This document shows positions 1 through 50,135 of a stretch of DNA of 50,219 nt, one piece after another. The position numbers and the translations under genes are program-made. Every line of letters starts with the position of its first letter. Position 1 is the stretch's first letter. Below the pieces are notes generated by a model. That model saw only the letters and a list, made by a program, of their open reading frames with translations. It did no database searches and was not told the DNA's origin. The DNA lies in the sequence record MH917278; one strand, 5' to 3'. Source of the stretch: Shigella phage phi2457T.

Positions 1-101
1 GTTGCATGGTGTGCAACTGTTGATGTGATTTTTGCTTAGAATGCAATGATTGTGAGAGGGAGGATTTAGTGTTACCCGGTTCGCCTGGTGGTCATCTCCA
101 T

Positions 102-120
102 TTTTAGCAAAACGTGCTAT
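102..120 (-). promoter_or_regulatory. conserved intergenic element copy (reverse orientation), ATAGCAC-N5-TTGCTAAAA
   Basis: Plus strand reads ttttagcaaaacgtgctat, reverse complement ATAGCACGTTTTGCTAAAA; matches the consensus repeated throughout the window. Confidence 0.4.
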
Positions 121-206
121 CGATTACACTTTAACTTGTCACGACTGTAATATTTGTCTAGAATCGCACTTGTGACAAAATTACGCACTGTGACGCATCA
201 CAATAG

Positions 207-285
207 ACATATAGATATATGTATATATATAATATATATAGTGTTTTTTTTATTTATATATATAGATAATCATATTGTAATAGTT
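207..285. repeat. AT-rich tract with TATATAGATAAT motif (shared with 30996-31057)
   Basis: Near pure A/T run atatagatatatgtatatatataatatatata...atatatagataatcatattg in noncoding left end. Confidence 0.5.
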
Positions 286-436
286 GTGTATAGCCGTCTT
301 ACATTGTCTAGCGTACTGTTGGCATATTTCTACCTGCATGTTTATATATACAGTACTTTTTTGAGGGCTATATATTTCTATAGTGACTCTAGACAGCTAG
401 ACAAATATTACACGGCTTAAAATTGGCTTGCAGTCG

Positions 437-465
437 TTGACAGCTCTACGTCGCTCTGTCACAAT
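437..465 (+). promoter_or_regulatory. candidate sigma70-type promoter upstream of first ORF
   Basis: Perfect TTGACA at 437-442, 17-bp spacer, TGtCACAAT extended -10-like at 457-465; by eye only. Confidence 0.35.
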
Positions 466-523
466 GGCAATTGTTGACATGTTATGACACCATTTACACA
501 CCAATAGACAAAGAGGGCACATT

Positions 524-1039
524 ATGAGCAATACCAATCAGGAATTAAAAATCACCGATATGATTCGACTAACCTGCGATGTAATGTACCGCGACAAAGG
601 TATGACCGAGTTCTCTTTCGTTGCTGATGATATGGCCATCGAGGCCGCGCGATTCTACTTCCGGGGCCAGGAGGTAAGCGATGCCGATCTTGAATCTGCC
701 GCTGCCGGATGGGTGGACCAGAACCAGGGGGAGGTAGAGAAGAGATTCAAGTCCGCTTTCATTACTCCGATCATTACCCGGCACTTTTGCAAGTACGGCA
801 AGGTGGCAAAGGTGAAGGTGGGCCGGAATGACGCCGCAATCACAATGATAACCGTTATCGTTACAGACGAAGAGGTTCCGGTTAAGAAGCGCCGTAGCCG
901 GAAAAAAGTTAGCCTGGCAGACTGCCTGGATTCGTTTGATGTTGATGTTATCAAGCTATCCGATAGCGAGTTAATGGTTCGTGATGTGAATGAGATCGTG
1001 CGACAGATGAAAGCACATATTGAAAAGTGTGGACTGTAA
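524..1039 (+). CDS. hypothetical protein (171 aa)
   Basis: ORF track; ATG preceded by aagaggg SD; first ORF after noncoding leader. Confidence 0.5.
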   Translation: MSNTNQELKITDMIRLTCDVMYRDKGMTEFSFVADDMAIEAARFYFRGQEVSDADLESAAAGWVDQNQGEVEKRFKSAFITPIITRHFCKYGKVAKVKVGRNDAAITMITVIVTDEEVPVKKRRSRKKVSLADCLDSFDVDVIKLSDSELMVRDVNEIVRQMKAHIEKCGL

Positions 1040-1053
1040 CGCCGATAGGTGAA

Positions 1054-1071
1054 ATAGCACTTTTTGTTAAA
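1054..1071 (+). promoter_or_regulatory. conserved intergenic element copy
   Basis: atagcactttttgttaaa immediately after stop of 524..1039. Confidence 0.45.
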
Positions 1072-1129
1072 GCCCGGTCGAGCGGATCGGGTATTATCTT
1101 CTCATCGACACGATACAGAGGAATCGAAG

Positions 1130-1326: not shown

Positions 1327-1797
1327 ATGGCGACAATTACCGTATTTCTTGCTAAAGATGAGATTGATGGCGAAATGTCATTCTTCGCGTTTGAGCACAA
1401 GACCGGATCGCACTGGCATATGTACAGCCACTACACGGTCATCGATATCAACTCATACCGCGCAAACTCACTTACTGAAAAGCTGGGTTGCTTCATTGGA
1501 GCTATCAAGGTGAACAATGGCTGCGAGTGGGCAGATGAGCACGAAGATCGCCGCATGTGCAATATGATTAACCCGGTCTATCTTGAGTCGTTCGATCTTG
1601 ATGCTGATGTGGCTATTAAGGTGAGAAAGTCGGGTGAGTTGTTGCCAGGGATGCGTGTGCTGACTGGTTACTCGGGCCGTAAGGTGTGGCGCACTGTATC
1701 CAAGATTCGCCAGCGTTCGGCAACATGCTATAGCGTGTTCTTTGATGACGGCTGGAATGAGGTTGCTGGTAGTAACGTGAAGTATCTTACCAAATAG
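1327..1797 (+). CDS. hypothetical protein (156 aa)
   Basis: ORF track; SD gagg upstream; stop codon TAG lies inside the conserved element at 1794. Confidence 0.5.
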   Translation: MATITVFLAKDEIDGEMSFFAFEHKTGSHWHMYSHYTVIDINSYRANSLTEKLGCFIGAIKVNNGCEWADEHEDRRMCNMINPVYLESFDLDADVAIKVRKSGELLPGMRVLTGYSGRKVWRTVSKIRQRSATCYSVFFDDGWNEVAGSNVKYLTK

Positions 1798-1813
1798 CAC
1801 GAATTGTTAAAAC
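1794..1813 (+). promoter_or_regulatory. conserved intergenic element copy
   Basis: atagcacgaattgttaaaac; followed by hairpin ggggta/tacccc with ctatagt in the loop, then leader catcaaaacgagatacc and SD. Confidence 0.5.
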
Positions 1814-1875
1814 AGGATCGGGGTATCTTGCTATAGTTACCCCATCAAAACGAGATACCAACCAGAGGATTCACC

Positions 1876-2106
1876 ATGTCAATCATCAAGAACCAACAAG
1901 CCATCGACTCGACCAGCCACAACTGCTTTGCTATTTTCATCACTCGCGACAACAAGCGATTTGCTGTCAGGGCGGTACCGGGTGGGTACAAAACATACAT
2001 GGAAAATAACGGAAAGTGGGTGCGCTGCGAAAACCTTGCAAACTTCTTGGTATGGAATGGCGAGTTTCAAGGTCGTGATGATATCAGCACTTTAATTGAG
2101 GAATAA
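1876..2106 (+). CDS. hypothetical protein (76 aa)
   Basis: ORF track; SD agagga 8 nt upstream. Confidence 0.5.
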   Translation: MSIIKNQQAIDSTSHNCFAIFITRDNKRFAVRAVPGGYKTYMENNGKWVRCENLANFLVWNGEFQGRDDISTLIEE

Positions 2107-2626: not shown

Positions 2627-2818
2627 ATGGCTGATTTTATGCACCAAATGATTGCAGTATTCAAAGGTAGCGAAGATGAGGAAGTAAAGGAATGCTTTAC
2701 CTTCAACAAGTCTTATAGCGCGTCGCTAACCAGCTTCGGGAACATCTCATTGCTTGATGATAATGGCGACCCCTGGATATTCGACGAAGATACTGATTGC
2801 TTCGAAATTAAAGAATAG
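2627..2818 (+). CDS. hypothetical acidic protein (63 aa)
   Basis: ORF track; stop TAG lies in the conserved element at 2815. Confidence 0.45.
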   Translation: MADFMHQMIAVFKGSEDEEVKECFTFNKSYSASLTSFGNISLLDDNGDPWIFDEDTDCFEIKE

Positions 2819-2834
2819 CACTTTTTGTTAAAAC
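2815..2834 (+). promoter_or_regulatory. conserved intergenic element copy
   Basis: atagcactttttgttaaaac, hairpin ggggtt/aacccc with gatatagt in loop. Confidence 0.5.
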
Positions 2835-2888
2835 TCAATTCCGGGGTTGCGATATAGTAACCCCATCGATAACGAACGAGGATTTATC

Positions 2889-3106: not shown

Positions 3107-3595
3107 ATGAAAATTAAATTACTTTGCACTGGCGGTTACAAGGGCTTTACTCGCGACCTGGAATCTGACCCTATTATCGTTGACGCCGTGAAGTGCAATG
3201 ATAGCATTGGCGGCTACCGCGTCAAAGTCGATGACCTGGTTAAAGCTGGCGTGTACGATCTCAATTGCGGCCTATCGGTTAGTCCGGTATTTGGCCCGGC
3301 TGACTTCAACGAGAAGGACGGAACTATGTTCTTTTTCGATTGGGAAGTGCGGGCAAACATCAAGCCTCGCAAGGTTCGACTTCTCAACAATGGCGGTTAT
3401 CCTATGCTACCAGGTTATGAGAATCGCACATTCCCGGTTATTGTTGACTTTGAAGAAATAACCACACACTTAGCTTATATCAACGGTGAACAGCTTCATG
3501 CTGTTGGATTCGTGGGAGGTATGAATCAAGAGGCGCTGTGCTTCTTCCATCGCGAATCAGAGCCGTTCGATATTGAGTGTGAGCTAGTCTACTAA
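3107..3595 (+). CDS. hypothetical protein (162 aa)
   Basis: ATG with SD gagga 8 nt upstream; N-terminus MKIKLLCTGGYKGF resembles the paralogous family. Confidence 0.5.
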   Translation: MKIKLLCTGGYKGFTRDLESDPIIVDAVKCNDSIGGYRVKVDDLVKAGVYDLNCGLSVSPVFGPADFNEKDGTMFFFDWEVRANIKPRKVRLLNNGGYPMLPGYENRTFPVIVDFEEITTHLAYINGEQLHAVGFVGGMNQEALCFFHRESEPFDIECELVY

Positions 3596-3611
3596 GCACG
3601 AATTGTTAAAA
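3594..3611 (+). promoter_or_regulatory. conserved intergenic element copy
   Basis: aagcacgaattgttaaaa, hairpin ggggatt/aatcccc. Confidence 0.45.
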
Positions 3612-3660
3612 GGGGATTCGTCCTGACTGGTACAATCCCCACATCGACCACCAAGAGGAA

Positions 3661-4152: not shown

Positions 4153-4301
4153 TGGCTGCATGGGTATTGATTATCTTGATGAGCACCGGGCCGGATCACG
4201 TATACATGGAAAGTCAGCAAGCATGTAACAAGGCTCGGGAAGTGATTGCAGAAAACAAGCCGTTCGGATACGAAGTAAAAACAATGTGTGTTAAACGATA
4301 G
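4152..4301 (+). CDS. putative small membrane protein (49 aa)
   Basis: ATG overlaps previous stop (ATAATGG); hydrophobic N-terminus MAAWVLIILMS; stop TAG is the TAG of the conserved element at 4298, as for neighbouring genes. Confidence 0.3.
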   Translation: MAAWVLIILMSTGPDHVYMESQQACNKAREVIAENKPFGYEVKTMCVKR

Positions 4302-4316
4302 CACGAATTGCTAAAC
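4298..4316 (+). promoter_or_regulatory. conserved intergenic element copy
   Basis: atagcacgaattgctaaac, hairpin aaggcca/tggcctt with gatatagt in loop. Confidence 0.5.
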
Positions 4317-4381
4317 CTTCCGCAAGGCCATTTGATATAGTGGCCTTATTGAAGCACGGCAACCAATCAGAGGAATCAGCT

Positions 4382-5642: not shown

Positions 5643-5861
5643 ATGGCTACTATCATGACAGCGGAAGATGCAGCGCGTGACGCAGTGGAAGGGATGCGCC
5701 CAAATACCTCCAGAATCGCACACTACTACAATTTTGACGTGTCGGCAGTGCAGCTGGTCCATGAAATTTTAAGGCTTCCACAAGTCGATTCAGCGCGACT
5801 GGTGACGTGCTTAAAAAATTATTTTTGCATCACTATTAAAACGAATAGCACGAATTGCTAA
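5643..5861 (+). CDS. hypothetical protein (72 aa)
   Basis: ORF track; weak SD; 3' end overlaps the conserved element. Confidence 0.35.
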   Translation: MATIMTAEDAARDAVEGMRPNTSRIAHYYNFDVSAVQLVHEILRLPQVDSARLVTCLKNYFCITIKTNSTNC

Positions 5862-5864
5862 AAC
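5845..5864 (+). promoter_or_regulatory. conserved intergenic element copy
   Basis: atagcacgaattgctaaaac, hairpin ggggaat/attcccc. Confidence 0.5.
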
Positions 5865-5918
5865 CTATCAAGGGGAATGCGCTATGATTCCCCTACACCA
5901 ACGAACGAGGGAACACTC

Positions 5919-6365
5919 ATGAAACATTTGATTTGCATTGATACACCTAACAATGAACACACCCTGCACGGCATTGGAATGTTCAAAGGCCACTACATGA
6001 CAGCAAGCATTTATGATGCGCATCGAGGCGATGGCGATCTAATGATTACTTCAAAAGAAGTTAATCCGTACATCATGCAGAATCTCGGGAACAATGAGTA
6101 TATGGCTTACGGCTGCAACGCGGTGTACAAGCATATCAAGATCCGCAAGCGCGTAGTTCGCGCATTCAAGAAGATTGCAATTAAATACTGGAAGATGAGC
6201 AAGAAGGACGCCGGAACATGGGCGCGTAACGTTGCTGATTCATACTTCTATCGTAACGGTGAGTCGTGCTACTTTTTGATCGATGATATTCATGACAATT
6301 ACGGCGGCTCATTCAGTCAGGAAGAGTTTGATAGCTGGGCTGAATACGAGATCAGTTGCTGGTAA
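5919..6365 (+). CDS. hypothetical protein (148 aa)
   Basis: Internal ATG (MKHLICID) after leader acgaacgagggaacactc. Confidence 0.5.
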   Translation: MKHLICIDTPNNEHTLHGIGMFKGHYMTASIYDAHRGDGDLMITSKEVNPYIMQNLGNNEYMAYGCNAVYKHIKIRKRVVRAFKKIAIKYWKMSKKDAGTWARNVADSYFYRNGESCYFLIDDIHDNYGGSFSQEEFDSWAEYEISCW

Positions 6366-6384
6366 TAGCACTAATTGCTAAAAC
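6365..6384 (+). promoter_or_regulatory. conserved intergenic element copy
   Basis: atagcactaattgctaaaac, hairpin aagggcat/atgccctt with gatagaa loop. Confidence 0.5.
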
Positions 6385-6448
6385 TTGCTCAAGGGCATTT
6401 GATAGAATGCCCTTCGTTGAGTTAAGCAACCAATCATAGGAATAAATC

Positions 6449-7090: not shown

Positions 7091-7663
7091 ATGAAAACAG
7101 CTATCATTTTAAACGGCGCTCCTGGAGCAGGCAAGGACACTATCGGATGCATCCTGGCTGACACTTACGATCATGTAGCTTTGCGCAGCTTCAAAGCACC
7201 AATGTTTGAGATTGCTCGGGCAATCCTGGGTGAGGCTAACTACGAGTATTTCATGTTCTTGTATGGGAACCGTATATACAAAGAAGAGCCAGATTCCATC
7301 CTGAACGGTAAAAGCCCGCGCCAGTTTATGATCTGGATTAGCGAGGAAGTCATTAAGCCACAGTTCGGAAATCGCTTCTTCGGCATGCGAGCGGAAAGCA
7401 AGGTCAAAGAATCAGACTCCCTTTCGGTATTTACTGATGGTGGATTCAAAGATGAGGTATTGCAGATGATTGAAGGTGATATCCAGGTCAAGCTATGCCG
7501 AATCCACCGCAAAGGCTGCAACTTTGACAACGACAGTCGTGATTATATTTACCTGGAAGATATGATCGGGGTTAATGGTTATCAGGAGTGTGATTTCTTC
7601 TCTGTCGAAGGTCATCCAGAAATTACCGCTCAGCACATAGCCGCTACGTTCATCAACAAATAG
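7091..7663 (+). CDS. P-loop nucleotide kinase (dNMP-kinase-like)
   Basis: Walker A GAPGAGKDT at N-terminus; size ~190 aa typical of small NMP/dNMP kinases. Confidence 0.5.
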   Translation: MKTAIILNGAPGAGKDTIGCILADTYDHVALRSFKAPMFEIARAILGEANYEYFMFLYGNRIYKEEPDSILNGKSPRQFMIWISEEVIKPQFGNRFFGMRAESKVKESDSLSVFTDGGFKDEVLQMIEGDIQVKLCRIHRKGCNFDNDSRDYIYLEDMIGVNGYQECDFFSVEGHPEITAQHIAATFINK

Positions 7664-7679
7664 CACGAATTGCTAAAAC
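7660..7679 (+). promoter_or_regulatory. conserved intergenic element copy
   Basis: atagcacgaattgctaaaac with downstream gatatagt. Confidence 0.5.
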
Positions 7680-7735
7680 GTCGGTGGGGTGATTTGATAT
7701 AGTTACCTCATCGACAACGAAGAGAGAAAATCGAA

Positions 7736-8286: not shown

Positions 8287-8516
8287 TGTTTGGTTTAAGT
8301 GAAGCGGAATGGAACGTGGTAAAGCGCGCGGCGAAGGAATTGAATAAATTTGTTAGCGGAATGAAGAAGGAAGATCGCAAAAACGAAAAGATTATGATTG
8401 ATGTGATCTCAACTCATCACAAAAAGGTTGAGCTACTCATCGACCGCTACAAGTTTGTATGGACCGCCGGATATATTGCAGGGCGCGTAGGTAACAAAGA
8501 GGGTGATTACGAATAA
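8286..8516 (+). CDS. hypothetical protein (76 aa)
   Basis: ORF track; SD gggag; TAATG coupling. Confidence 0.4.
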   Translation: MFGLSEAEWNVVKRAAKELNKFVSGMKKEDRKNEKIMIDVISTHHKKVELLIDRYKFVWTAGYIAGRVGNKEGDYE

Positions 8517-9448: not shown

Positions 9449-9471
9449 AACCCGCTACGGCGGGTTTTTTT
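9449..9471 (+). terminator. rho-independent terminator
   Basis: Hairpin cccgctacggcggg followed by TTTTTTT. Confidence 0.65.
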
Positions 9472-9490: not shown

Positions 9491-9509
9491 ATAGCACTAA
9501 ATGTTAAAC
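9491..9509 (+). promoter_or_regulatory. conserved intergenic element copy upstream of terminase small subunit
   Basis: atagcactaaatgttaaac preceded by ctgcaatatgg -10-like. Confidence 0.45.
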
Positions 9510-9524
9510 AAAGAGGGTATATTT

Positions 9525-14872: not shown

Positions 14873-15349
14873 ATGGCACAGATTAATGCATCTTATCAGC
14901 GAGACATGGCTATTGCGCTTCCGGGTATGGTTGCGGATACTTCGAAGTATAATATTGATGGCGCTTGCGTCGTTAACGAAGGTGATGTTTTTGTTGGCGC
15001 CGCCGTACAGGTTGTTCAAGCCCAAGCCGTTGATGGCCATAAATTGGTTAAGGCTATGGAATCGTCTAAAGTGCCGTATGGCGTAGCTATTCGATCTCAC
15101 TGGCAGACTGTGAATAAAGATAATCAGATGATTTACGAAGATGGCGGCGCTATCAACGTGATTACCTCCGGTAGAGTTTGGATGCTTTCCAAATCAGAAG
15201 AGGCGCCAACTTTCGGGACCGCTGTAAAACTTGACGTTGACGGTCAAGAGAAATCTGACGGTACGATCGAAACCACTTGGACCTACGCTGGCGGTTGGAC
15301 CAAATATAAAGACATTCAGCTTGTTGAAGTTCAGTTGCATCAACTGTAA
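14873..15349 (+). CDS. capsid-associated structural protein, paralogue A (decoration-like)
   Basis: Shares N-terminal domain with the next gene (DTSKYNIDGACV / DTSNYNIDGSCV; PYGVAIRS / PYGIAFRS); located before major capsid. Confidence 0.5.
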   Translation: MAQINASYQRDMAIALPGMVADTSKYNIDGACVVNEGDVFVGAAVQVVQAQAVDGHKLVKAMESSKVPYGVAIRSHWQTVNKDNQMIYEDGGAINVITSGRVWMLSKSEEAPTFGTAVKLDVDGQEKSDGTIETTWTYAGGWTKYKDIQLVEVQLHQL

Positions 15350-18829: not shown

Positions 18830-19217
18830 GTTATCAGCGGCGGCTAGAGCCGCATTTCTGTCAAAGTACAGAGATTTTCCTCACTACATGGAAAACCGCA
18901 ACTTCACACCACCGAAGGATGGCGGTATGTGGCTTAGATTTAATTACATAGAAGGCGATACACGTTATCTATCCATTGACAGAAAATGCAAGTCTTACAT
19001 TGCTATCGTGCAAATTGGAGTGGTTTTCCCTCCAGGATCAGGGGTTGACGAGGCAAGATTGAAAGCAAAAGAGATTGCTGATTTTTTCAAAGATGGTAAA
19101 ATGCTTAACGTTGGTTATATTTTCGAGGGTGCAATCGTGCATCAAATTGTTAAACACGAGAGCGGGTGGATGATTCCGGTTCGCTTTACAGTACGAGTAG
19201 ACACAAAGGAGACTTAA
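18819..19217 (+). CDS. tail completion / tail terminator protein (putative)
   Basis: Position immediately before major tail protein. Confidence 0.45.
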   Translation: MHYELSAAARAAFLSKYRDFPHYMENRNFTPPKDGGMWLRFNYIEGDTRYLSIDRKCKSYIAIVQIGVVFPPGSGVDEARLKAKEIADFFKDGKMLNVGYIFEGAIVHQIVKHESGWMIPVRFTVRVDTKET

Positions 19218-35443: not shown

Positions 35444-35462
35444 ATAGCACGAATTGCTAAAC
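35444..35462 (+). promoter_or_regulatory. conserved intergenic element copy within an extended inverted repeat
   Basis: atagcacgaattgctaaac followed 27 nt later by inverted half gtgctat; lies between two minus-strand genes. Confidence 0.4.
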
Positions 35463-35499
35463 ACAGATTTTATCATTGTGCTATTGGTCTTGCAACGGG

Positions 35500-36473: not shown

Positions 36474-36512
36474 ATAAAAAACGCGTAGAAGGATGTTAAC
36501 CCGCTACGCGTC
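36474..36512 (-). terminator. rho-independent terminator (minus strand)
   Basis: Hairpin acgcgtag...ctacgcgt preceded on plus strand by A7. Confidence 0.5.
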
Positions 36513-36519
36513 GTTTGTT

Positions 36520-36972
36520 TTAACTAAAAATGCTATTCGTCGTTCCAATATCTTCCTTCTTCACGACTCGCATAAACTTCTTGTTTTTGCATCGCTTCTC
36601 AAGGCACTTTCCGTTCCCATCAAACTTCAGATCGAATCGTAGCCATGCCGCCCGGAATCCTTTGCAACCCTGTCGGCGGTAAGCACGATGCGCTGCTTCA
36701 GCGCCTTGCCATGAAATCATATTGCGATCTTTCCAGCCTTGCACCGTCTGATTGCTAACTTTTAGAGCCTTTGCGCAGGCCGCAGGACCACCGTAATATT
36801 CGATAAGAGCATCCAATCGCGCTCTCAGTCCTGCGCGCGTTTCTTCTTTATGGATATAAAATCCGCAGCGCTGGCGAGGCTTTTTATCTTTACCGCGTCG
36901 TGTTCCGTTGTTACCATTGATGTGACGTTTATCGATTTCACCAGTAGACTCTGCGATACGTTTCATATTCAT
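36520..36972 (-). CDS. HTH DNA-binding protein (Cro/YdaS-like)
   Basis: Internal ATG with SD caggag; segment CAKALKVSNQTVQGWKDRNMIS looks like a helix-turn-helix. Confidence 0.45.
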   Translation of the reverse strand: MNMKRIAESTGEIDKRHINGNNGTRRGKDKKPRQRCGFYIHKEETRAGLRARLDALIEYYGGPAACAKALKVSNQTVQGWKDRNMISWQGAEAAHRAYRRQGCKGFRAAWLRFDLKFDGNGKCLEKRCKNKKFMRVVKKEDIGTTNSIFS

Positions 36973-36985
36973 CTTAATTCTCCTG

Positions 36986-37005
36986 TAGCACTTTTTGCTA
37001 AAAAC
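36986..37005 (+). promoter_or_regulatory. conserved intergenic element copy upstream of helicase
   Basis: tagcactttttgctaaaaac in divergent region. Confidence 0.45.
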
Positions 37006-37066
37006 GTTTACTGTATGCCGTGTATTATATCGTAAACGATACAACGATTCAAAGGATTAAATAGCC

Positions 37067-39085
37067 GTGACAATTAACATCAAAAAGCAAATCGCATTAC
37101 TTGGCGAGGACTATATAAAACGCACTCAAGAACGATTCACTGTTGGTGAGGTCGTTCCGTATCCGTACCAGGTTGTTGCTTATGCTGAGATCGCAAAACG
37201 CCTATCAAATTATGAGCATCCATTCTTTGTTAAAGCGTCAGTATCGGCGGGTAAGACCATCATTTTTGCTATGGTTGCAAAGCAGTGTCAAAAAATGGGC
37301 TTGAAAATGCTTGTGCTGGCACGCCAGGGTGAGATTGTCGATCAGGATAGTGAAGAGATCGACAATTTCGGGGTGACTAACTCTATATTCTCAGCGTCAC
37401 TTGGAATCAAGTCTTGCTACTTCCCGATCGTGGTAGGCTCTGAGGGTACTGTTGCAAATGGTTTAAATAATGAGCTAGCTGATTTTGTCCCTCACGTAAT
37501 CGGGATAGATGAATGTCACCAGGTGGATTGGGAAGACCTTGCACAAGCCATAGATGGCAAGGAAACGATGGAACAGATGCGGGAAGAGAAGGGAAAAATC
37601 ATTATGAATGGGGAGGTTCCTCTGATTGGTAATGATGGGAAGCCTCTACTTGGAACTAAGCGAAGCCAATACACGATCGTAATCATGGAAATGATGCGCC
37701 GCTGCAAAGAAACTCACGGTCACGACCTCAGAATATTTGGTATGACTGGATCTGAATTTCGTGGCGTAGTTCCTATTCTTGTTGAGAATCCAAAGGCGTT
37801 AGGCTTCTGGCGTGAGCGCGTTACTGATATAGACACCAACTACCTTATTGAGTTTGGCTCAGTTGTTCCTACTATATTCGGCTCGACGGACGGAGTTCAC
37901 TACGATCTTGATAAATTTAAGGCATCAAGCGAGGATGGGGTACAGGACTTTACAGAGAAAGATATGAAGGCAATGGAAGATGAGATCCTTCATGATAAAT
38001 CTCTTACTCAGCGAATCATGCAAATGGTTGCTAAAAAGGCTGAAGAGCGTAACGCAGTCCTGATTACATGCGCTGGGGTGCGTCACTGCAAAGAGGCGGC
38101 AGCGGCACTACCGCCTGGAAGCACATATGCAATTATTACTGGCGACACAGACACTAAAACGCGCAAGAAGATTCTTGATGATGTGAGGGCAGGGAAAATT
38201 AAATACACCTTTCAGGTCATGGCGCTAACTACTGGCGTTAACGTTCCAAACTGGGATTTCAGTGTAATACTTCGCAAGATAGGATCTCTCACCTTGCTGA
38301 TTCAGCTTTTGGGTAGGGGTATGCGACTTCTTAAATCATGGCAGGTTGCTGAAGGGATGGTTAAGCAAGACCATCTTGTATGGGATTTCGCAGGCACGAT
38401 GGATGAGTTGGGGCAGCTTTATTTCGATCCTATACTTGAGCAGGCTCAGTTCCAGAAGCGATTTGAGAACGGAAAAGACCCGAAAAAGTGTCCGAAATGT
38501 GGTTGCGTAAATAGCTTCTACGCTCGCCGATGCGTTAACGTTATCGACGGTGAACGCTGCGATCATTTCTGGACTTCTCAGATTTGCGAGGACCAGGTTG
38601 ATGAACGTACCGGGAAAATTCTTGTTAAAGGGTGCGGTGCCGAGAATGACGTTGTTGCCCGAGTCTGTCGCTGTTGCGATGTTTCTCTTGTTGATCCTAA
38701 CCTTAAGTTATCCGGTAAGGCGTACACTAAGAATGACTGGTACGAGGTCAAGAATTTTGAAGTTACGTTAACCAAAAACCAAAATGGTGTGATATACAAA
38801 TACACACTTATTAACGACGATGGTGATGAGTTCAAGGCGTATGAAAAATTCTTCCCTGAGTCAGACTCTAAGATTTGCGGTACGCTATGGAAAACGAAAG
38901 GAGTATTACCTCACGTATCAGATCCTAAAATGCGTCGCTACTTTATCGGAATGAAGAACGCTATCAAGATCGTGCAATACGCTCATCATATAGCGCATCC
39001 GGTACGCGTTACTCATAGACGCAACCAGAAGAAAGAAGATATTATTTCACGCAAAGATTTCGGTATGGAGGATATCCCGGAATGA
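37067..39085 (+). CDS. superfamily-2 DNA helicase
   Basis: 672 aa; Walker A SAGKT, DEAH-type motif IGIDECHQV, Cys-rich zinc-ribbon near C-terminus; GTG start inferred from ORF track. Confidence 0.75.
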   Translation: MTINIKKQIALLGEDYIKRTQERFTVGEVVPYPYQVVAYAEIAKRLSNYEHPFFVKASVSAGKTIIFAMVAKQCQKMGLKMLVLARQGEIVDQDSEEIDNFGVTNSIFSASLGIKSCYFPIVVGSEGTVANGLNNELADFVPHVIGIDECHQVDWEDLAQAIDGKETMEQMREEKGKIIMNGEVPLIGNDGKPLLGTKRSQYTIVIMEMMRRCKETHGHDLRIFGMTGSEFRGVVPILVENPKALGFWRERVTDIDTNYLIEFGSVVPTIFGSTDGVHYDLDKFKASSEDGVQDFTEKDMKAMEDEILHDKSLTQRIMQMVAKKAEERNAVLITCAGVRHCKEAAAALPPGSTYAIITGDTDTKTRKKILDDVRAGKIKYTFQVMALTTGVNVPNWDFSVILRKIGSLTLLIQLLGRGMRLLKSWQVAEGMVKQDHLVWDFAGTMDELGQLYFDPILEQAQFQKRFENGKDPKKCPKCGCVNSFYARRCVNVIDGERCDHFWTSQICEDQVDERTGKILVKGCGAENDVVARVCRCCDVSLVDPNLKLSGKAYTKNDWYEVKNFEVTLTKNQNGVIYKYTLINDDGDEFKAYEKFFPESDSKICGTLWKTKGVLPHVSDPKMRRYFIGMKNAIKIVQYAHHIAHPVRVTHRRNQKKEDIISRKDFGMEDIPE

Positions 39086-39498
39086 TTACAGATAAAGGCG
39101 ATTACTTAGAGTTTTACGAGCGAGATCCTAGCGACACGCGAAAGGAGGACGCTCATCAAGTAGACTGCGTGTCCTGGTTGAAATACAATTTTCCTCAGCT
39201 TCTATTTTGGCACACAGTTAACGAAGGTGAAAAAACAATCACTTCGGCACTTAGGGATGAGCAGGCTGGATTACTTAAAGGCGTATCAGACTTTGTTATT
39301 CTGATTGGTATAAACTCACGTTACCCGTTCGCAGCTATCGAACTCAAGCGGGTTAATAAGTCCGGCAAAGGAAAGGCATCACCAGTCAGCGATAAGCAAA
39401 GGGAGTTTCTCAAAAAGGTTCGGGATCGCGGTGGATTCTCTGCCGTTGCATACGGATTTGAGCAATTCAAGCTGGCAATATACGATTTAACGAAATAG
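39082..39498 (+). CDS. VRR-NUC domain nuclease (putative)
   Basis: 138 aa; ...AAIELKRVNKSGKGKASPVSDKQREFLKKVRDRGGFSAVAYG resembles VRR-NUC; ATGA overlap with helicase. Confidence 0.5.
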   Translation: MITDKGDYLEFYERDPSDTRKEDAHQVDCVSWLKYNFPQLLFWHTVNEGEKTITSALRDEQAGLLKGVSDFVILIGINSRYPFAAIELKRVNKSGKGKASPVSDKQREFLKKVRDRGGFSAVAYGFEQFKLAIYDLTK

Positions 39499-39513
39499 CA
39501 CTTTTTGCTAAAC
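39495..39513 (+). promoter_or_regulatory. conserved intergenic element copy
   Basis: atagcactttttgctaaac then hairpin and leader caccgaaacgagagga. Confidence 0.5.
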
Positions 39514-39565
39514 ATGCCGGAATGGATTCTGGCATTATTATCTCACCGAAACGAGAGGATTAAAA

Positions 39566-40279
39566 ATGAAAGACTTTAATGATATCGAAACCATTGATTT
39601 TGCTGAAACTGGTTGCTCATTTACTCGCGAAGCAATAGCATCAGGCGGTTATTATCAGGCATTGAAAACCCCAACCTGCAAAGAGATTTCAGGACGTCGA
39701 TACAAGGGAACCAATACGCCGGATGCTGTTCGTGATTTATGGTCAACTCCACGAGAGGTTATCGCATATCTTGAGGGGCGCTACGGAAAATATGATCTAG
39801 ACGCTGCGGCAAGCGAAGAAAATAAAGTTTGCGAGAAGTTTTATTCCCAGGAAACAAACTGCTTAAAACGTTGGTGGGGTAAAAATAAGCACGTATGGTT
39901 AAATCCTCCTTACAGTCGACCTGATATATTCGTCAAGAAAGCGATTGAGCAAATGGAGCACAACAACCAGATCGATATTCTTTTACCTGCCGATAACTCG
40001 ACGGCGTGGTTTACTGAGGCTCGACAGCACGCGGCTGAAATCATCTGGATTGAAGCTGATTTGACTGAGGATATTGACGGAAATGAATACGCACGATCCG
40101 GTCGTCTGGCTTTCATATCAGGTGAAACTGGAAAAGCCGTAGACGGCAACAATAAAGGTTCGGTTATTTTTATTATGCGCGAACTTAAAGAAGGTGAGAC
40201 GCAACAGACTCACTACATCCCAATCACAAGCATTTGTCCTTCCGTTAAAAACAAACGAGCAAAGGTGAGAAAAGTATGA
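39566..40279 (+). CDS. dam: DNA N6-adenine methyltransferase (Dam-like)
   Basis: 237 aa with catalytic DPPY-type motif NPPYS; typical phage Dam size. Confidence 0.75.
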   Translation: MKDFNDIETIDFAETGCSFTREAIASGGYYQALKTPTCKEISGRRYKGTNTPDAVRDLWSTPREVIAYLEGRYGKYDLDAAASEENKVCEKFYSQETNCLKRWWGKNKHVWLNPPYSRPDIFVKKAIEQMEHNNQIDILLPADNSTAWFTEARQHAAEIIWIEADLTEDIDGNEYARSGRLAFISGETGKAVDGNNKGSVIFIMRELKEGETQQTHYIPITSICPSVKNKRAKVRKV

Positions 40280-40527
40280 TGAGCGAAAAAATGGTTCCTG
40301 TTAAATTAACTGATCAAGGGTTATGGCTTCTTTATCGCGCTACGTGCTGCGAAATTATGGAGAGAAACGGATTAACTCAAGATGTTATTGGTTGCGATTT
40401 ATGGGAGTTTACAAGTTCTCTTGATATGTCGTTCGATGAGATAAAGAATAAACACATAGAGCATTGGCCTTCAATCATTCAGAAAGACGTAGAAGAACTT
40501 AAATCCGACACGATCTTACAGCACTAA
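40276..40527 (+). CDS. hypothetical protein (83 aa)
   Basis: ORF track; ATGA overlap with dam. Confidence 0.4.
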   Translation: MMSEKMVPVKLTDQGLWLLYRATCCEIMERNGLTQDVIGCDLWEFTSSLDMSFDEIKNKHIEHWPSIIQKDVEELKSDTILQH

Positions 40528-40537
40528 TTGCTAAAAC
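40519..40537 (+). promoter_or_regulatory. conserved intergenic element copy
   Basis: cagcactaattgctaaaac overlapping stop codon, then hairpin acccg/cgggt and tatagt. Confidence 0.45.
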
Positions 40538-40593
40538 TACCCGGCGAAAGTCGGGTATAGTTATTTCATCAAAACGAAATGAGGAATAATAAG

Positions 40594-41363: not shown

Positions 41364-42515
41364 ATGTCACAAGCTAAAATCACTACCGAGCAACTTATCG
41401 AAGAGCGCATGAGCGGCCTTACACTTCGCGAGATCGCGGAAAAGTACGGTATGCACATCCGCACAGTTGAAGCGCGTCACGCCAAACTTGCAAAAGAAGG
41501 TCACTTCCACGGTAACGAGCATGTTGCTAAGAACGTACCGGAAGGATTCATGGTAAAAGGAACATCAACGATGATTCGCGGCGATGGGACCGAGGTAGTG
41601 CGATGGGTTAAGACCGATCAGGACCGAGAGAAGATTGCTGCAATGATGGAAGCAGCGCGTATTGCATTCTGTGAAGACTTGCCGCGAGCAAAACCAACCG
41701 AGCTACTCACCTCGCAAGGGCTTACAACCGCTATTGGCAAGCTGGCACTCTACCCGGTGTTCGATCTTCACATTGGCGCGCTTGCTCACAAGCATGAATG
41801 CGGAGAGAACTACTCTACAGACGTAGCGGAAAAAGTGCTGAATGACTTCTTTAACTACGCGATCGATATTGCCCCGAACGCAGAGAAGGCTGTTCTGTTA
41901 ATCGGAGGCGACTTCCTTCACTCAGACGGTCTTGATGCTGTTACCCCGGCAAGTGGTCACGTTCTGGATCAGGATTCACGATATGCGAAATTGGTGCATG
42001 TGGCTATTCGATCGGTGCGACGAGCTATCGACAAAATGCTGACTAAACACAAAGAGGTCGAAGTTCAGGTTATCGAAGGGAACCACGACCAGGCCGGAAT
42101 GATTTGGCTACGCGCTGCAATGGCTGCATACTATGAGGACGAGCCGCGAGTATTCGTTGACGTTAGTCCTATGATTCTGCATAAGACCCGCTGGGGAAAT
42201 ACCTTGTTGGGATACACTCACGGTCACACGATGAAAAAGGCAGACACGCGACTTGCAGCGATGGCAGCAGATTTCCGCGCAGATTTTGGTGAAAGCAAAT
42301 ACGTGTACACGCATAGCGGACACTGGCATCATCAGACAATTACTGAACACTCGTTAGGTATTGATGAAGTGCACGGTCAGTTAGGCGCGAAGGATGCATA
42401 CGCAGCACGCGGAGGGTGGCGCTCATATCGCCAGGCGGCGGTAATTGTTTACGATAAGCAATTTGGGGAAATCGGTCGTTTCATCTATCGTCCAGAAATG
42501 ACAGGATCGCACTAA
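41364..42515 (+). CDS. metallophosphoesterase-family protein with N-terminal HTH domain
   Basis: N-terminus LTLREIAEKYGMHIRTVEARH (HTH-like); phosphoesterase motifs DLHIGALAH, GGDFLHSDG, EGNHD (GNHD as in Mre11/SbcD-type enzymes). Confidence 0.5.
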   Translation: MSQAKITTEQLIEERMSGLTLREIAEKYGMHIRTVEARHAKLAKEGHFHGNEHVAKNVPEGFMVKGTSTMIRGDGTEVVRWVKTDQDREKIAAMMEAARIAFCEDLPRAKPTELLTSQGLTTAIGKLALYPVFDLHIGALAHKHECGENYSTDVAEKVLNDFFNYAIDIAPNAEKAVLLIGGDFLHSDGLDAVTPASGHVLDQDSRYAKLVHVAIRSVRRAIDKMLTKHKEVEVQVIEGNHDQAGMIWLRAAMAAYYEDEPRVFVDVSPMILHKTRWGNTLLGYTHGHTMKKADTRLAAMAADFRADFGESKYVYTHSGHWHHQTITEHSLGIDEVHGQLGAKDAYAARGGWRSYRQAAVIVYDKQFGEIGRFIYRPEMTGSH

Positions 42516-42526
42516 TTGATAAAAAC
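42507..42526 (+). promoter_or_regulatory. conserved intergenic element copy (degenerate)
   Basis: tcgcactaattgataaaaac then gggtatagt and leader catcgaaaacaaagagga. Confidence 0.4.
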
Positions 42527-42578
42527 ACCAGAAGGGATTCGGGTATAGTAACAACATCGAAAACAAAGAGGATATATC

Positions 42579-44206: not shown

Positions 44207-44270
44207 GATGTTTTCCTTCAGGTCGTTTAATTTCGATGAAACAAATATACCCGATACGAGATCGGGTGTT

Positions 44271-44288
44271 TTAACAAAAAGTGCTATT
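44271..44288 (-). promoter_or_regulatory. conserved intergenic element copy (minus orientation)
   Basis: Plus strand ttaacaaaaagtgctatt = reverse complement AATAGCACTTTTTGTTAA. Confidence 0.5.
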
Positions 44289-46376: not shown

Positions 46377-46432
46377 CACAATAAACTCCTTAGTTGACGG
46401 TGTAAATGATACACCGACAATGGTACACGCGT

Positions 46433-46450
46433 TTTGCAAAAAGTGCTATT
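46433..46450 (-). promoter_or_regulatory. conserved intergenic element copy (minus orientation)
   Basis: Plus strand tttgcaaaaagtgctatt; hairpin cggtgta/tacaccg lies between it and the gene start. Confidence 0.45.
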
Positions 46451-46869: not shown

Positions 46870-46931
46870 TTCGTTAACTCCTGATTGGTTATCTTGAATA
46901 AGGTCACTTTATCAAATGACCTTACGGCAAT

Positions 46932-46951
46932 ATTAACAAATCGTGCTATTT
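46932..46951 (-). promoter_or_regulatory. conserved intergenic element copy (minus orientation)
   Basis: Plus strand attaacaaatcgtgctattt; hairpin ggtca/tgacc downstream on minus strand. Confidence 0.45.
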
Positions 46952-48740: not shown

Positions 48741-48797
48741 CTGGTGATTCTCCTGATTGGTTGATGCGTTAACCATACCCCGATCTCGCTCGGGGCG

Positions 48798-48816
48798 TTT
48801 AGCAATTCGTGCTATT
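48798..48816 (-). promoter_or_regulatory. conserved intergenic element copy (minus orientation)
   Basis: Plus strand tttagcaattcgtgctatt; hairpin ccccgagcgagatcgggg downstream on minus strand; contains stop of upstream gene. Confidence 0.5.
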
Positions 48817-49150: not shown

Positions 49151-49213
49151 TTTCTTGCTCCTGATGTGTATCTCGTTTCGATGAGGTAATTATGCCAAAT
49201 CACACCGATCGAG

Positions 49214-49232
49214 TTTTAACAAAAAGTGCTAT
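49214..49232 (-). promoter_or_regulatory. conserved intergenic element copy (minus orientation)
   Basis: Plus strand ttttaacaaaaagtgctatc. Confidence 0.5.
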
Positions 49233-50060: not shown

Positions 50061-50118
50061 GTCGATTCCTCTGATTGGTTGATGAGATGAATAATACCCG
50101 ATCTACCCGGGTGACGTG

Positions 50119-50135
50119 TGGCAAAAAATGCTATT
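50119..50135 (-). promoter_or_regulatory. conserved intergenic element copy (degenerate, minus orientation)
   Basis: Plus strand tggcaaaaaatgctatt; hairpin and leader follow on minus strand. Confidence 0.35.

Follow-up and report, generated by a model that had tools for sequence, protein, structure and literature searches.

A repeated, probable promoter cassette in Shigella phage phi2457T with a likeness to host class II marbox promoters and an overlapping hairpin

The DNA analyzed here (the window; 50,219 nucleotides of Shigella phage phi2457T, record MH917278) is a complete T1-like (Drexlerviridae) phage genome. Between an open reading frame at 1327..1797 and a 76-aa early gene lies a compact intergenic cassette with the following features.

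1794..1813, + strand: marbox-like 20-mer ATAGCACGAATTGTTAAAAC, predicted to span -50 to -31
1795..1797, + strand: TAG stop codon of the upstream open reading frame 1327..1797, within the marbox (open reading frame list and sequence)
1816..1846, + strand: class B hairpin GAT-c-GGGGTA ... TACCCC-ATC, with the -10 in its loop and its 3' arm spanning -6 to +3
1829..1830, + strand: TG at -15/-14 (extended -10), read from the sequence
1832..1837, + strand: -10 hexamer TATAGT, 22 nt past TTGTTA, that is, 18 nt past the marbox
1844, + strand: predicted transcription start, an A with C before it, 7 nt past the -10
1844..1875, + strand: conserved leader ATCAAAACGA..., with the SD AGAGGA at 1864-1869
1876..2106, + strand: 76-aa early gene downstream of the cassette (open reading frame list)

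A Pfam search with the 76-aa product returned no family.

TTGYTA followed after exactly 22 nt by TATAGT occurred at five sites on the + strand (1804, 2825, 4308, 7670, and 40528), against 0.02 expected from shuffled sequences. These include all three copies (1794, 2815, and 4298) for which a first-pass annotation had reported TATAGT exactly 22 nt past TTG(C/T)TA. The hexamer singled out there is real and fixed in its spacing, but the true element is longer (20 nt). In full, the upstream element reads TAGCAC-N3-TTGYTAAA and is present in about 25 copies; allowing up to two mismatches, the window contained 26 against 0.77 expected. The full 20-nt element, the existence of two hairpin classes, and the match to a known host regulon had escaped that annotation. 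A -10-like hexamer, defined by A in second place, T in sixth, and a match of at least 4/6, lay exactly 22 nt past TTGYTA in 20 of the 27 window copies tabulated. The downstream 76-aa protein, used as the query for related loci, retrieved only two, and whole genomes of six Drexlerviridae genera were used instead. Across these six genomes, 90 of 117 copies had the -10 at exactly 22 nt, with offsets of 21 or 23 in at most six copies. Folding was performed on 90 cassettes and position-by-position conservation was computed on 88 unique ones. The element was unchanged across divergent genera, and each cassette preceded a gene with its own SD, at about 25 copies per genome. Two orphan copies lacking a -10 were found, one at 35444 and the other, located on the terS ribosome-binding site, at 9491. 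Fairly probably, T1-like phages use the cassette as the standard promoter, or intergenic expression module, of their early regions. Further cassettes and related features of the window are as follows.

101..164, + strand: class I (mar-like) promoter at the left genome end; backward marbox TTTTTAGCAAAACGTGCTAT, 15 nt, TTGTCA, 17 nt, TAGAAT
1054..1097, + strand: cassette, marbox to -10 TATTAT; class A, terminator-like hairpin
2815..2858, + strand: cassette, marbox to -10 TATAGT; class B hairpin GGGGTT/AACCCC
3593..3636, + strand: cassette, degenerate marbox (AAGCAC), -10 TACAAT; class B hairpin
4298..4341, + strand: cassette, zero-mismatch marbox, -10 TATAGT; hairpin AAGGCCA/TGGCCTT
5845..5888, + strand: cassette, -10 TATGAT
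6365..6408, + strand: cassette, -10 TAGAAT; hairpin AAGGGCAT/ATGCCCTT
7660..7703, + strand: cassette, -10 TATAGT; 15-pair hairpin including G·U pairs
36493..36536, - strand: degenerate cassette 5' of the primase gene; hairpin and T-run with true terminator shape, a terminator in the T1 annotation
36972..36520, - strand: conserved 150-aa Cro-like HTH regulator; T1 gp23
36985..37028, + strand: cassette 5' of the helicase gene; marbox and the ribosome-binding region of the divergently transcribed regulator gene overlap
39495..39538, + strand: cassette 5' of the Dam methylase gene; class A hairpin, the equivalent being annotated as a terminator in the T1 record
40518..40561, + strand: cassette, -10 TATAGT; class A, GAAA-loop hairpin
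42506..42549, + strand: cassette, -10 TATAGT; weak hairpin
44244..44287, - strand: cassette, -10 TATATT; class A hairpin leading into a U-rich tail
46406..46449, - strand: cassette 5' of the second helicase gene, -10 TATCAT
46906..46949, - strand: cassette, -10 TAAAGT; hairpin AAGGTCA/TGACCTT
48772..48815, - strand: cassette, -10 TATGGT; class A hairpin
49189..49232, - strand: cassette, -10 CATAAT
50091..50134, - strand: cassette, degenerate marbox, -10 TATTAT

The repeated element was compared with the marbox in two forms. A 20-mer marbox consensus, AYNGCACNNWNNRYYAAAYN, is reportedly that of Martin et al. 1999; the window contained 21 sites with at most one mismatch to it, against 0.75 in shuffles, and 19 of 25 window copies fell within this limit. 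The published marbox definition is GCANNWWNTGNNAAA (PMC12052159), and the MarA recognition elements are CACG/T-7 nt-AAA, subject to a 7-bp rule (PMC8811837). Exact matches to GCANNWWNTGNNAAA numbered 21, compared with 0.65 expected from shuffles. In the 1794 marbox, RE1 is GCAC and RE2 is TAAA with 7 bp between them; this 20-mer has one mismatch to AYNGCACNNWNNRYYAAAYN and none to GCANNWWNTGNNAAA, and 14 of its 20 positions are identical to the E. coli micF marbox. Over the 88 unique cassettes, conservation peaked at ATAGCAC and TAAA(A), corresponding to the two MarA recognition elements. G-47 was invariant but its would-be dyad partner at -37 was C in 55 and T in 30 cassettes, and the element is therefore asymmetric; C-44 and A-34/-33 fall outside the dyad. 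In every cassette the marbox was forward: GCAC was the element farther from the -10 and the downstream gene, AAA the nearer one. Its centre was at -40.5, and the -10 lay 18 bp past the 20-mer in 90 of the 117 copies from the six genomes.

This geometry is that of class II marbox promoters, in which a forward marbox covers the -35, is centred near -41, and leaves no recognisable -35 (PMC12052159, PMC8811837, and PMC10268841 between them). At micF, sigma70 is displaced from the -35 (same class II literature: PMC12052159, PMC8811837, PMC10268841), and forward marbox sites in general cluster near -41 (PMC10268841). The class II promoters micF, inaA, fumC, and lpxC P2 share with the phage cassettes GCAC and AAA 7 bp apart, the forward direction in place of a -35, the 18 bp to the -10, the centre near -41, and the start, a predicted one in the phage, 7 nt after the -10. 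E. coli K-12 micF reads ACAGCACTGAATGTCAAAAC-18-TAGAAT-7-annotated 5' end and inaA reads marbox-18-TATAGT, while the spacing in fumC is 18 or 19. Judged by sequence, direction, and spacing, the cassette repeat matches a MarA/SoxS/Rob marbox. The marbox consensus is degenerate, and a match alone is little proof. Unlike the host class II promoters, the phage copies number about 25 per 50 kb in a virulent phage, are closer to the consensus and to each other, and add an embedded RNA hairpin and a conserved leader. Position 19 of the marbox is mostly A, not Y, in the phage copies. The site at 101-164 instead resembles the class I marRAB promoter of E. coli. Its backward marbox is identical to the mar marbox at 16 of 20 positions and, as in marRAB, is followed by a real -35, 17 nt, and a -10, the spacer after the marbox being 16 nt in mar and 15 in the window. 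It differs from marRAB in being a single copy at the genome end, where no MarR-type operators were identified. The T1 left end has the same class I geometry.

The hexamer at the proper -35 position (-35..-30) of the cassettes reads AAAaCn. A canonical sigma70 scan detected none of the cassettes in 1-10 kb, and overall returned 23 sites against 19.5 expected, that is, no enrichment. These results uphold the earlier view that TTGYTA is not an ordinary -35. Within the -10 of the 88 unique cassettes, A2 and T6 were invariant and the middle positions variable (TAnnnT). An extended -10 had also been proposed; TG at -15/-14 is indeed present in several copies, but with 36 of 88 (41%) it is a minority feature, and G-14 alone occurs in 71 of 88 (81%). 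G-14 or TG may allow many copies to fire without an activator. A occupied +1 in 76 of 88 cassettes and C occupied -1 in 60, followed by a ATCGAAACGA-like leader and then an SD, in agreement with the conserved leader and SD first described. Transcription is predicted to begin at the conserved A, 7 nt after the -10, which is also the distance between the -10 of micF and its annotated 5' end. A literature search found no transcriptome or start-site map for the T1 family. The first-pass suggestion of a -10 promoter with an upstream activator site is thus the one we favour, specified as a class II forward marbox and with the extended -10 confined to a minority.

The spacer, -10, and discriminator of the 90 cassettes folded with a mean z of -3.3 against shuffles that kept the -10 fixed, and 82% had z < -1.64; for the hairpin at 1816..1846 the MFE was -13.4 kcal/mol (z = -3.9). 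The stems listed in the first-pass annotation (ggggta/tacccc, ggggtt/aacccc, aaggcca/tggcctt, and aagggcat/atgccctt) are all present and fold as claimed. Its statement that TATAGT usually sits in the loop or 3' arm describes the 41 of 88 cassettes in class B, but in another 24 (class A) the entire stem-loop fits into the 22-nt spacer, ending at the -10; the remaining 23 have a weak fold or none. The hexamer keeps its distance from the element while the hairpin shifts, standing 5' of the hexamer in class A and around it in class B. In a 9-pair helix, 99.1% of positions were paired and six pairs showed compensatory changes, which none of 500 shuffles equalled. The GC-rich hairpin is real. The sense fold was stabler than the antisense in 71 of 90 cassettes (p = 3e-9), G·U accounted for 12.7% of pairs, and the effect of base composition on strand stability had the opposite sign to the observed sense bias. 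The stronger sense strand and the G·U pairs suggest that the hairpin probably works as RNA, in read-through from the upstream gene; such transcripts would be its target, given that its 3' arm begins at or spans the predicted start. A DNA cruciform or N4-type hairpin promoter is disfavoured, since G·U pairs give the sense strand the better fold. The RNA hairpin offered earlier as an alternative to a promoter is thus supported by covariation and sense bias, but appears to be a second layer rather than a rival.

The hairpin probably ends or stabilises upstream transcripts. The mean T count in the 8-nt tail was 3.8 for class A and 1.4 for class B. One copy (1072-1092) passed a terminator scan, and class B tails do not fit the U-tract pattern; some cassette hairpins were annotated as terminators by the depositors of the T1 record. 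An Rfam search of the window matched no family. For class B, which lacks a U-tract, our guess at its role is that a 3' protective or pause structure is more likely.

We favour, with reasonable though not high confidence, a model of two layers in which a class II marbox promoter is read by host MarA/SoxS/Rob and an RNA hairpin is laid over it. The computation shows directly how well the sequence matches, its orientation and spacing, the signature of the -10, and the statistics, covariation, and strand bias of the hairpin, whereas the start site, activator binding, activator identity, and hairpin function are inferred. The DNA layer would be a sigma70 promoter without a -35 that carries a 20-bp asymmetric marbox at about -50..-31, forward and 18 bp from the -10. 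On the pattern of micF, inaA, and fumC, the marbox would be occupied by a monomeric activator of the AraC/XylS type, which would stand in for the contact between sigma region 4 and the -35 and recruit RNA polymerase; the candidate readers are host MarA, SoxS, and Rob (RamA in Klebsiella). The RNA layer, a GC-rich hairpin over the spacer, -10, and discriminator, would form only in transcripts from the upstream gene, whose stop codon lies within the marbox, and would end or stabilise those transcripts. Class A would have the shape of an intrinsic terminator, with the -10 supplying the U-rich tail, and class B would form 3' protective or pause structures.

A phage-encoded MarA homologue was considered and rejected. 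A phmmer search with MarA against six-frame open reading frames from the six genomes gave a best E of 1.3, and Pfam found no AraC-type HTH among 22 window proteins. Since these searches yielded no phage AraC-family protein, the element is most likely read by a host activator, and its invariance across divergent genera is what a conserved host reader would lead one to expect. Of MarA, SoxS, and Rob, it is Rob that is constitutive and abundant, and for its constitutive nature we would guess it to be the default reader of the cassette marbox. Unstressed cells contain little MarA or SoxS, and Rob stays largely inactive before induction, which fits poorly with the very short latent period of the phage. 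The same cassettes were also present in two Drexlerviridae records, one with Vibrio cholerae as its listed host and the other with Pseudomonas aeruginosa; both host labels are doubtful, that of Pseudomonas because the two genomes have 45% GC. If these host assignments are correct, a strictly enterobacterial activator would not be the whole story. A literature search found nothing linking marboxes to phages.

The promoter may be correctly identified and its reader be a phage protein, either the Cro-like HTH regulator or an unrecognised early protein, that is made first from canonical sigma70 promoters and then switches the cassettes on. We regard this as rather unlikely, although several observations speak for it. 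The element is partly palindromic (TAGCA-N5-TGCTA), and the regulator belongs to the core genes, with 824 phage records containing it, has a P22_Cro/YdaS-type HTH, and possesses its own TTGAAT-17-TATAAT promoter, with its start codon 12 nt from the helicase-cassette marbox. The first gene (524..1039) lies behind canonical promoters and has no known fold, its AlphaFold model (pLDDT 83.6) finding no fold match in the PDB; the cassettes in phages listed on Vibrio and Pseudomonas point the same way. Against a phage reader, the asymmetric conservation (G-47, -37, C-44, and A-34/-33) suits a two-HTH monomer better than a symmetric dimer, and the predicted recognition helix of the regulator varies by clade (SNQTVQGW versus CCVRLTNAY) where the element is identical. 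Both points also weaken a symmetric dimer operator TAGCA-N5-TGCTA of the class II CRP-like type. Moreover, the marbox sequence together with both class I and class II geometry would have to be coincidence. The reader could also be one of the small phage proteins whose fold is unknown. The phage Mu Mor/C and lambda CII promoters likewise combine a poor -35 with an activator site that overlaps its region, and their activators, which the phages encode themselves, recognise dyad or direct repeats; the phi2457T site differs in matching that of a host monomeric two-HTH activator.

Distinctly less likely than a phage reader is an arrangement with no activator, in which the -10 or extended -10 promoters are self-sufficient and the repeat is a UP-like element that RNA polymerase touches directly or a repressor 'stoperator' that serves to turn early genes off. 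The good -10 hexamers, the frequencies of G-14 (81%) and TG (41%), and the orphan copies without a -10 (9491 and 35444) would suit it. UP elements are A/T-rich tracts, unlike the most conserved bases of the repeat, which contain G/C (GCAC, TTG), and the repeat overlaps the -35 region rather than lying upstream of a -35. The strict 18-bp spacing in one orientation (90/117) is also unlike that of roadblock sites. The repeat itself has been described before. A 21-nt direct repeat, aaATAGCACnnnTTGnTAAAA, was reported in 2024 in phage TLS with its function left open (PMC11447400); its 18 copies there are intergenic, follow the direction of transcription, and precede start codons by about 76 nt, and T1, Rtp, and Rogue1 have it too. 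According to the accessible text of that report, its authors propose a stoperator, enhancer site, or UP element, and their re-annotation of TLS lists only three sigma70-like promoters (PMC11447400). The TLS repeat is the same element as the phi2457T cassette repeat, and the accessible text makes no mention of the fixed -10 spacing, the hairpin, or a marbox match.

Very improbably, the cassette is an RNA element only, a UAUAGU-type-loop hairpin with a boxA-like sequence serving as a processing or nut-like antitermination site: real covariation, the sense-strand bias, and the many terminators punctuating T1-type genomes speak for it, but the hexamer is fixed relative to the element while the hairpin moves between class A and B, the sigma70 signature (A2, T6), G-14, and a C/A start 7 nt on are present, each of the roughly 25 copies per genome stands before a gene with its own SD, and no Rfam family matched.

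Two known promoter types were also set aside. The sigma54 consensus is TGGCAC-N5-TTGC, with GG and GC 10 bp apart (-24/-12); the TAGCAC-N3-TTGC of the element is 2 bp too short and has A for the first G. The sequence TTGCTAAA of the element is similar to a T4 MotA box but stands at -40, not -30, and no MotA/AsiA-type annotation appeared among the annotations of the phage records viewed.

Returning to the host-read marbox, we put forward tentatively, as a proposition that could well fail, that Drexlerviridae have wired nearly all early genes (about 20-25 promoters per genome) to MarA/SoxS/Rob/RamA through class I and class II architecture copied from the host. If so, early expression would be raised by exposure of the cells to bile, salicylate, or oxidants and in mar/ram/sox mutants with multidrug resistance, and would fall without these factors. 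T1 is a classic coliphage whose promoters, to our knowledge, were never defined, and many Klebsiella and E. coli phage-therapy candidates are Drexlerviridae. If the repeat is a marbox, the early transcription of about 1,100 sequenced phages would be legible from sequence alone, a long-noted repeat would gain a testable function, and phage expression would be tied to a clinical multidrug-resistance regulon, with relevance to phage-antibiotic combination. The cassettes would also be compact, strong, insulated promoter/terminator parts responsive to MarA/SoxS/Rob, and a hairpin wrapped around a -10 is an unusual overlap of signals.

The cassettes recall the promoter-early stem-loops (PeSLs) of T4-like phages, composite terminator/early-promoter stem-loop motifs (PMC2839356, PMC4122927). 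Both are short repeated promoter and stem-loop cassettes between small accessory early genes; here, unlike in PeSLs, the promoter is of the marbox type without a -35, and the stem-loop is in the spacer or around the -10. The likeness, drawn from descriptions, would be an analogy of design, not membership. In PeSLs, indel breakpoints between relatives fall within the cassettes. In phi2457T, judged by inspection and with cassettes making up about 3% of the genome, blastn block ends between the window and T1 coincide in the same way, at 1793, 2813, 2882, and 4366 and again at 42500/42542, 44285, 46450/46455, and 50078, all in or about 10 nt from cassettes.

The window is a complete T1-like siphophage genome of 50,219 bp (Drexlerviridae, Tunavirus); its first 6 kb are collinear with T1 and share 94% identity with Shigella phages Sfin-1 and Sfin-2. 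In this genome, TTGYTA-N22-TATAGT occurs five times against 0.02 expected. The conserved upstream element extends beyond the hexamer, and TAGCAC-N3-TTGYTAAA with up to two mismatches is found 26 times against 0.77 expected. Copies of the element lie on the coding strand immediately 5' of genes; together with the -10-like hexamer, hairpin, leader and SD they form a repeated cassette. The cassette studied is located in the left early arm between two ORFs:

1327..1797, 156-aa ORF, upstream neighbour
1876..2106, 76-aa ORF, downstream neighbour

Early-arm cassettes occupy the plus strand at 1-9.4 kb and the minus strand at 44-50 kb, further ones are located in the replication/recombination block (35-43 kb), and no forward-facing cassette was found in the structural block of the window (9.5-30 kb). 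The element is present in 1,108 phage records, often in multiple copies per record; the multi-copy matches listed are all records of 22-52 kb, and all but one bear enterobacterial names.

Alignment of 27 window copies on the element placed a -10-like hexamer exactly 22 nt past TTGYTA in 20 of them, followed by 6 nt and ATCRA. The same layout was observed in T1, TLS, Klebsiella phage Sweeny, Escherichia phage 12210I and Cronobacter phage CS01, which cover several genera and subfamilies of Drexlerviridae. Across the six genomes the hexamer is at offset 22 in 90/117 element copies, and at offset 21 or 23 in no more than six. The cassette observation is real and highly non-random. Among 88 unique cassettes, A-11 and T-7 are invariant, and T-12 (83%), G-14 (81%), TG at -15/-14 (41%), C-1 (68%) and A+1 (86%) are frequent. 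Judged from sequence, this position profile is what marks a sigma70 -10 element, the predicted start being 7 nt further on. Where a -35 hexamer would be expected, the sequence is AAAaCn; a canonical -35/-10 scan detected none of the cassettes in 1-10 kb and overall returned 23 sites against 19.5 expected, which is no enrichment. These results confirm the first-pass annotation, which had placed TATAGT 22 nt after TTG(C/T)TA within a GC-rich hairpin and held TTGCTA unlikely to be a normal -35. We conclude that the unit is a promoter cassette.

The phage 20-mer A-TAGCAC-nnn-TTGYTA-AAAC resembles the marbox of the host activators MarA/SoxS/Rob, AYnGCACnnWnnRYYAAAYn, and this likeness served as a lead that was then tested in four ways. 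The marbox defined by the Grainger laboratory as 5'-GCANNWWNTGNNAAA-3' (PMC12052159) has 21 exact matches in the window versus 0.65 in shuffles; the 20-mer with at most one mismatch likewise gives 21 window sites versus 0.75. MarA reads CGTG with helix 3 and TTT with helix 6, separated by 7 bases, so that its elements appear on the other strand as CACG/T-7 nt-AAA (PMC8811837). The phage element is CAC(G/T)-7 nt-AAA, with conservation maxima at ATAGCAC and TAAA(A). The 20-mer is forward in every cassette, covers -50 to -31 (centre -40.5, with the -10 numbered -12 to -7) and ends 18 bp ahead of the -10. Class II marbox geometry, in which a 20-bp box overlapping the -35 is followed by 18 bp, accounts for the 22-nt spacing. 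At the micF promoter, sigma70 is displaced from the -35 (PMC12052159, PMC8811837, PMC10268841). E. coli K-12 micF resembles the cassette in its series of ACAGCACTGAATGTCAAAAC, 18 nt, TAGAAT, 7 nt and the annotated micF 5' end, and its box has 14/20 positions in common with the phage consensus. K-12 inaA is similarly built of a marbox, 18 nt and TATAGT, and fumC has 18 or 19 nt from marbox to -10. Window 101-120 holds a backward copy sharing 16/20 positions with ATGCCACGTTTTGCTAAATC, the backward marbox of the mar promoter. It is followed by 15 nt (16 nt in mar), TTGTCA, 17 nt and TAGAAT, a class I, mar-like arrangement whose geometry is kept in T1 with different hexamers. Both classes of marbox promoter are thus represented in the phage.

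The repeat as such has been described before. The available portions of the 2024 TLS re-annotation (PMC11447400) report a 21-nt direct repeat, aaATAGCACnnnTTGnTAAAA, in 18 intergenic copies oriented with transcription and about 76 nt ahead of start codons, also present in T1, Rtp and Rogue1. They list just three sigma70-like promoters in TLS, suggest that the repeat is a stoperator, enhancer-binding site or UP element, and in those portions mention no fixed -10 distance, hairpin or host-regulon match. Other T1-family genome papers relied on generic promoter predictors, and a literature search found no T1-family transcriptome or start-site map. The marbox identification, fixed geometry and hairpin analysis appear to be new within the searchable literature.

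Folding of the spacer, the -10 and the next 12 nt in 90 cassettes gave a mean z of -3.3 relative to shuffles that hold the -10 fixed. In class A (24/88), the stem-loop lies within the spacer and ends at the -10, and the T-rich -10 and discriminator form its tail (mean 3.8 T per 8 nt); several class A hairpins were annotated as rho-independent terminators by the T1 depositors, and one passes a terminator scan. In class B (41/88), the arms flank the -10, with the 3' arm over about -6 to +6 and a mean of 1.4 T per 8 nt in the tail. The fold is weak or absent in the other 23/88. A subfamily of 13 members, picked solely by TTTG(A/T) preceding the -10, has a 9-pair helix that is 99.1% paired, with both-side changes in six pairs. 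Shuffles matched the observed values in 0/500 trials on four of five measures and in 2/500 on the fifth, and shifting the register by 1-3 columns lowered pairing to about 50%. In 71/90 cassettes the sense strand gives a more stable fold than the antisense (mean difference 2.65 kcal/mol, p = 3e-9), and G·U accounts for 12.7% of all hairpin pairs. Shuffled sequences have a small strand bias of opposite sign, so the strand difference does not come from base composition. The data point to an RNA structure rather than a DNA cruciform.

Because the predicted start falls on or within the 3' arm, only read-through transcripts from the upstream gene would contain the hairpin; the stop codon of that gene is often inside the marbox (e.g. 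TAG at 1795-1797). Most economically, the hairpin would be a 3' end element of the upstream unit, class A acting as a transcription terminator and class B, at a guess, shielding the 3' end or inducing a pause. The hairpin is a genuine second signal, probably at the RNA level. The spacer contains GATC, the Dam site, in 18/88 unique cassettes from the six genomes, by our own arithmetic about 2.4 times the 7-8 expected at equal base frequencies, often as GGATCGGG or CCGATC inside stems. The phage has a methylase of its own:

39566..40279, phage-encoded Dam methylase

As for the protein that reads the element, a phmmer search of every six-frame ORF in the six genomes with MarA as query detected no AraC/XylS-type protein (best E = 1.3), and Pfam scans of 22 window proteins detected no HTH_18 or AraC domain. 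The AlphaFold model of the first gene product, encoded behind the canonical promoters (pLDDT 83.6), had no PDB fold match. The sole recognisable phage DNA-binding protein is a Cro-like regulator, encoded by a core gene that occurs in 824 phage records:

36972..36520, minus strand, 150-aa P22_Cro/YdaS-type HTH regulator (T1 gp23)

This regulator has its own promoter (TTGAAT-17-TATAAT) and its start codon adjoins the marbox of the helicase cassette, and on these grounds it was considered as a possible reader of the partly palindromic TAGCA-N5-TGCTA. However, conservation of the element is asymmetric, G-47 being invariant and its would-be partner at -37 being C55/T30, and the predicted recognition helix varies by clade (SNQTVQGW vs CCVRLTNAY) whereas the element is identical in those phages. 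Such invariance across divergent phages is what would be expected of a site for a conserved host protein, and on this ground the host activators MarA/SoxS/Rob, or RamA in Klebsiella, are our preferred putative readers. Rob is abundant and constitutive and is thus the likeliest default. Many copies may retain some activator-free activity through G-14/TG. We regard the full mechanism, including putative host-factor binding and activation, as moderately probable.

Nine near-consensus marboxes in Vibrio phage Vc1 and 16 in Pseudomonas phage Motto, most with a -10-like hexamer at 18-bp spacing, bear on this choice. Both are Drexlerviridae records labelled with non-enterobacterial hosts, and these labels, if right, favour a phage-encoded reader. 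The labels are doubtful given the 45% GC of both phages and their closeness to enteric Tempevirinae; either they cannot be relied on or the cassettes function independently of enterobacterial MarA/SoxS/Rob.

The N-terminal motif of the regulator, RIAxSTGEIDKRxINGNNGTRRGKDKKPR, is extremely conserved, with 12 invariant residues across 21 homologues, and had no family match. The regulator promoter (minus strand) and the divergent helicase cassette are arranged back to back, with the promoter overlapping the -10 of the cassette (36985-37070). Both -10s are enclosed by an inverted repeat, ACGTTTAC-N20-GTAAACGT, a possible operator for the regulator.

Window-T1 homology blocks end in or beside cassettes at 1793, 2813, 2882, 4366, 42500/42542, 44285, 46450/46455 and 50078, which are boundaries of insertions, deletions and replacements. 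At two of them, the T1 sequence missing from the window coincides with annotated HNH endonuclease genes. This suggests modular exchange mediated by cassettes. T4-like phages have promoter-early stem-loop cassettes (PeSLs) for which such boundary behaviour has been reported (PMC2839356, PMC4122927); the T1-family cassette is an analogue of the PeSL design built on a different promoter type. In the leaders (+1 to +40) of all cassettes, e.g. window 1844-1875, 4348-4380 and 50084-50060, ATCGAAACGA is conserved at +1 to +10, and a subset carries AACCAATCAGAGGAAT directly around the SD. These shared motifs could be translation or stability signals, or a mere trace of cassette duplication.

Two good marbox copies are antisense in the late structural block, at 19979-19929 (-) and 16214-16164 (-); they occupy the intergenic gaps that follow the major tail gene and precede the major head gene. 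The former, with a TG-extended TACGAT correctly spaced at 22 nt, might be the promoter of a short antisense RNA; its T1 counterpart at 18849 is conserved. In 12210I, a copy at 14958 has a similar position, with the major tail gene on one side and the tape-measure chaperone gene on the other; it is sense and ahead of a small inserted gene. Orphan marboxes with zero mismatches and no -10 at the proper distance occur at 9491-9510 (+) and 35444-35463 (+). The first, conserved in T1 at 8363, follows closely on a bidirectional terminator (9449-9466) and directly overlies the ribosome-binding region of the small terminase gene; the second, located between the genes for tail fibre and primase, leads into a terminator. 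Both may act as roadblocks or regulatory sites where the early and late regions meet. At the left end, window 120-520 is an unusual AT-rich stretch with (TA)n-like runs at about 215-270 and several repeats of the types TGTCTAGA/TCTAGACA and TTGTGAC/GTCACAA. It contains the only strong canonical sigma70 promoters of the first 10 kb (204-233 and 437-465), and could serve for immediate-early control or be close to the start of packaging or replication.
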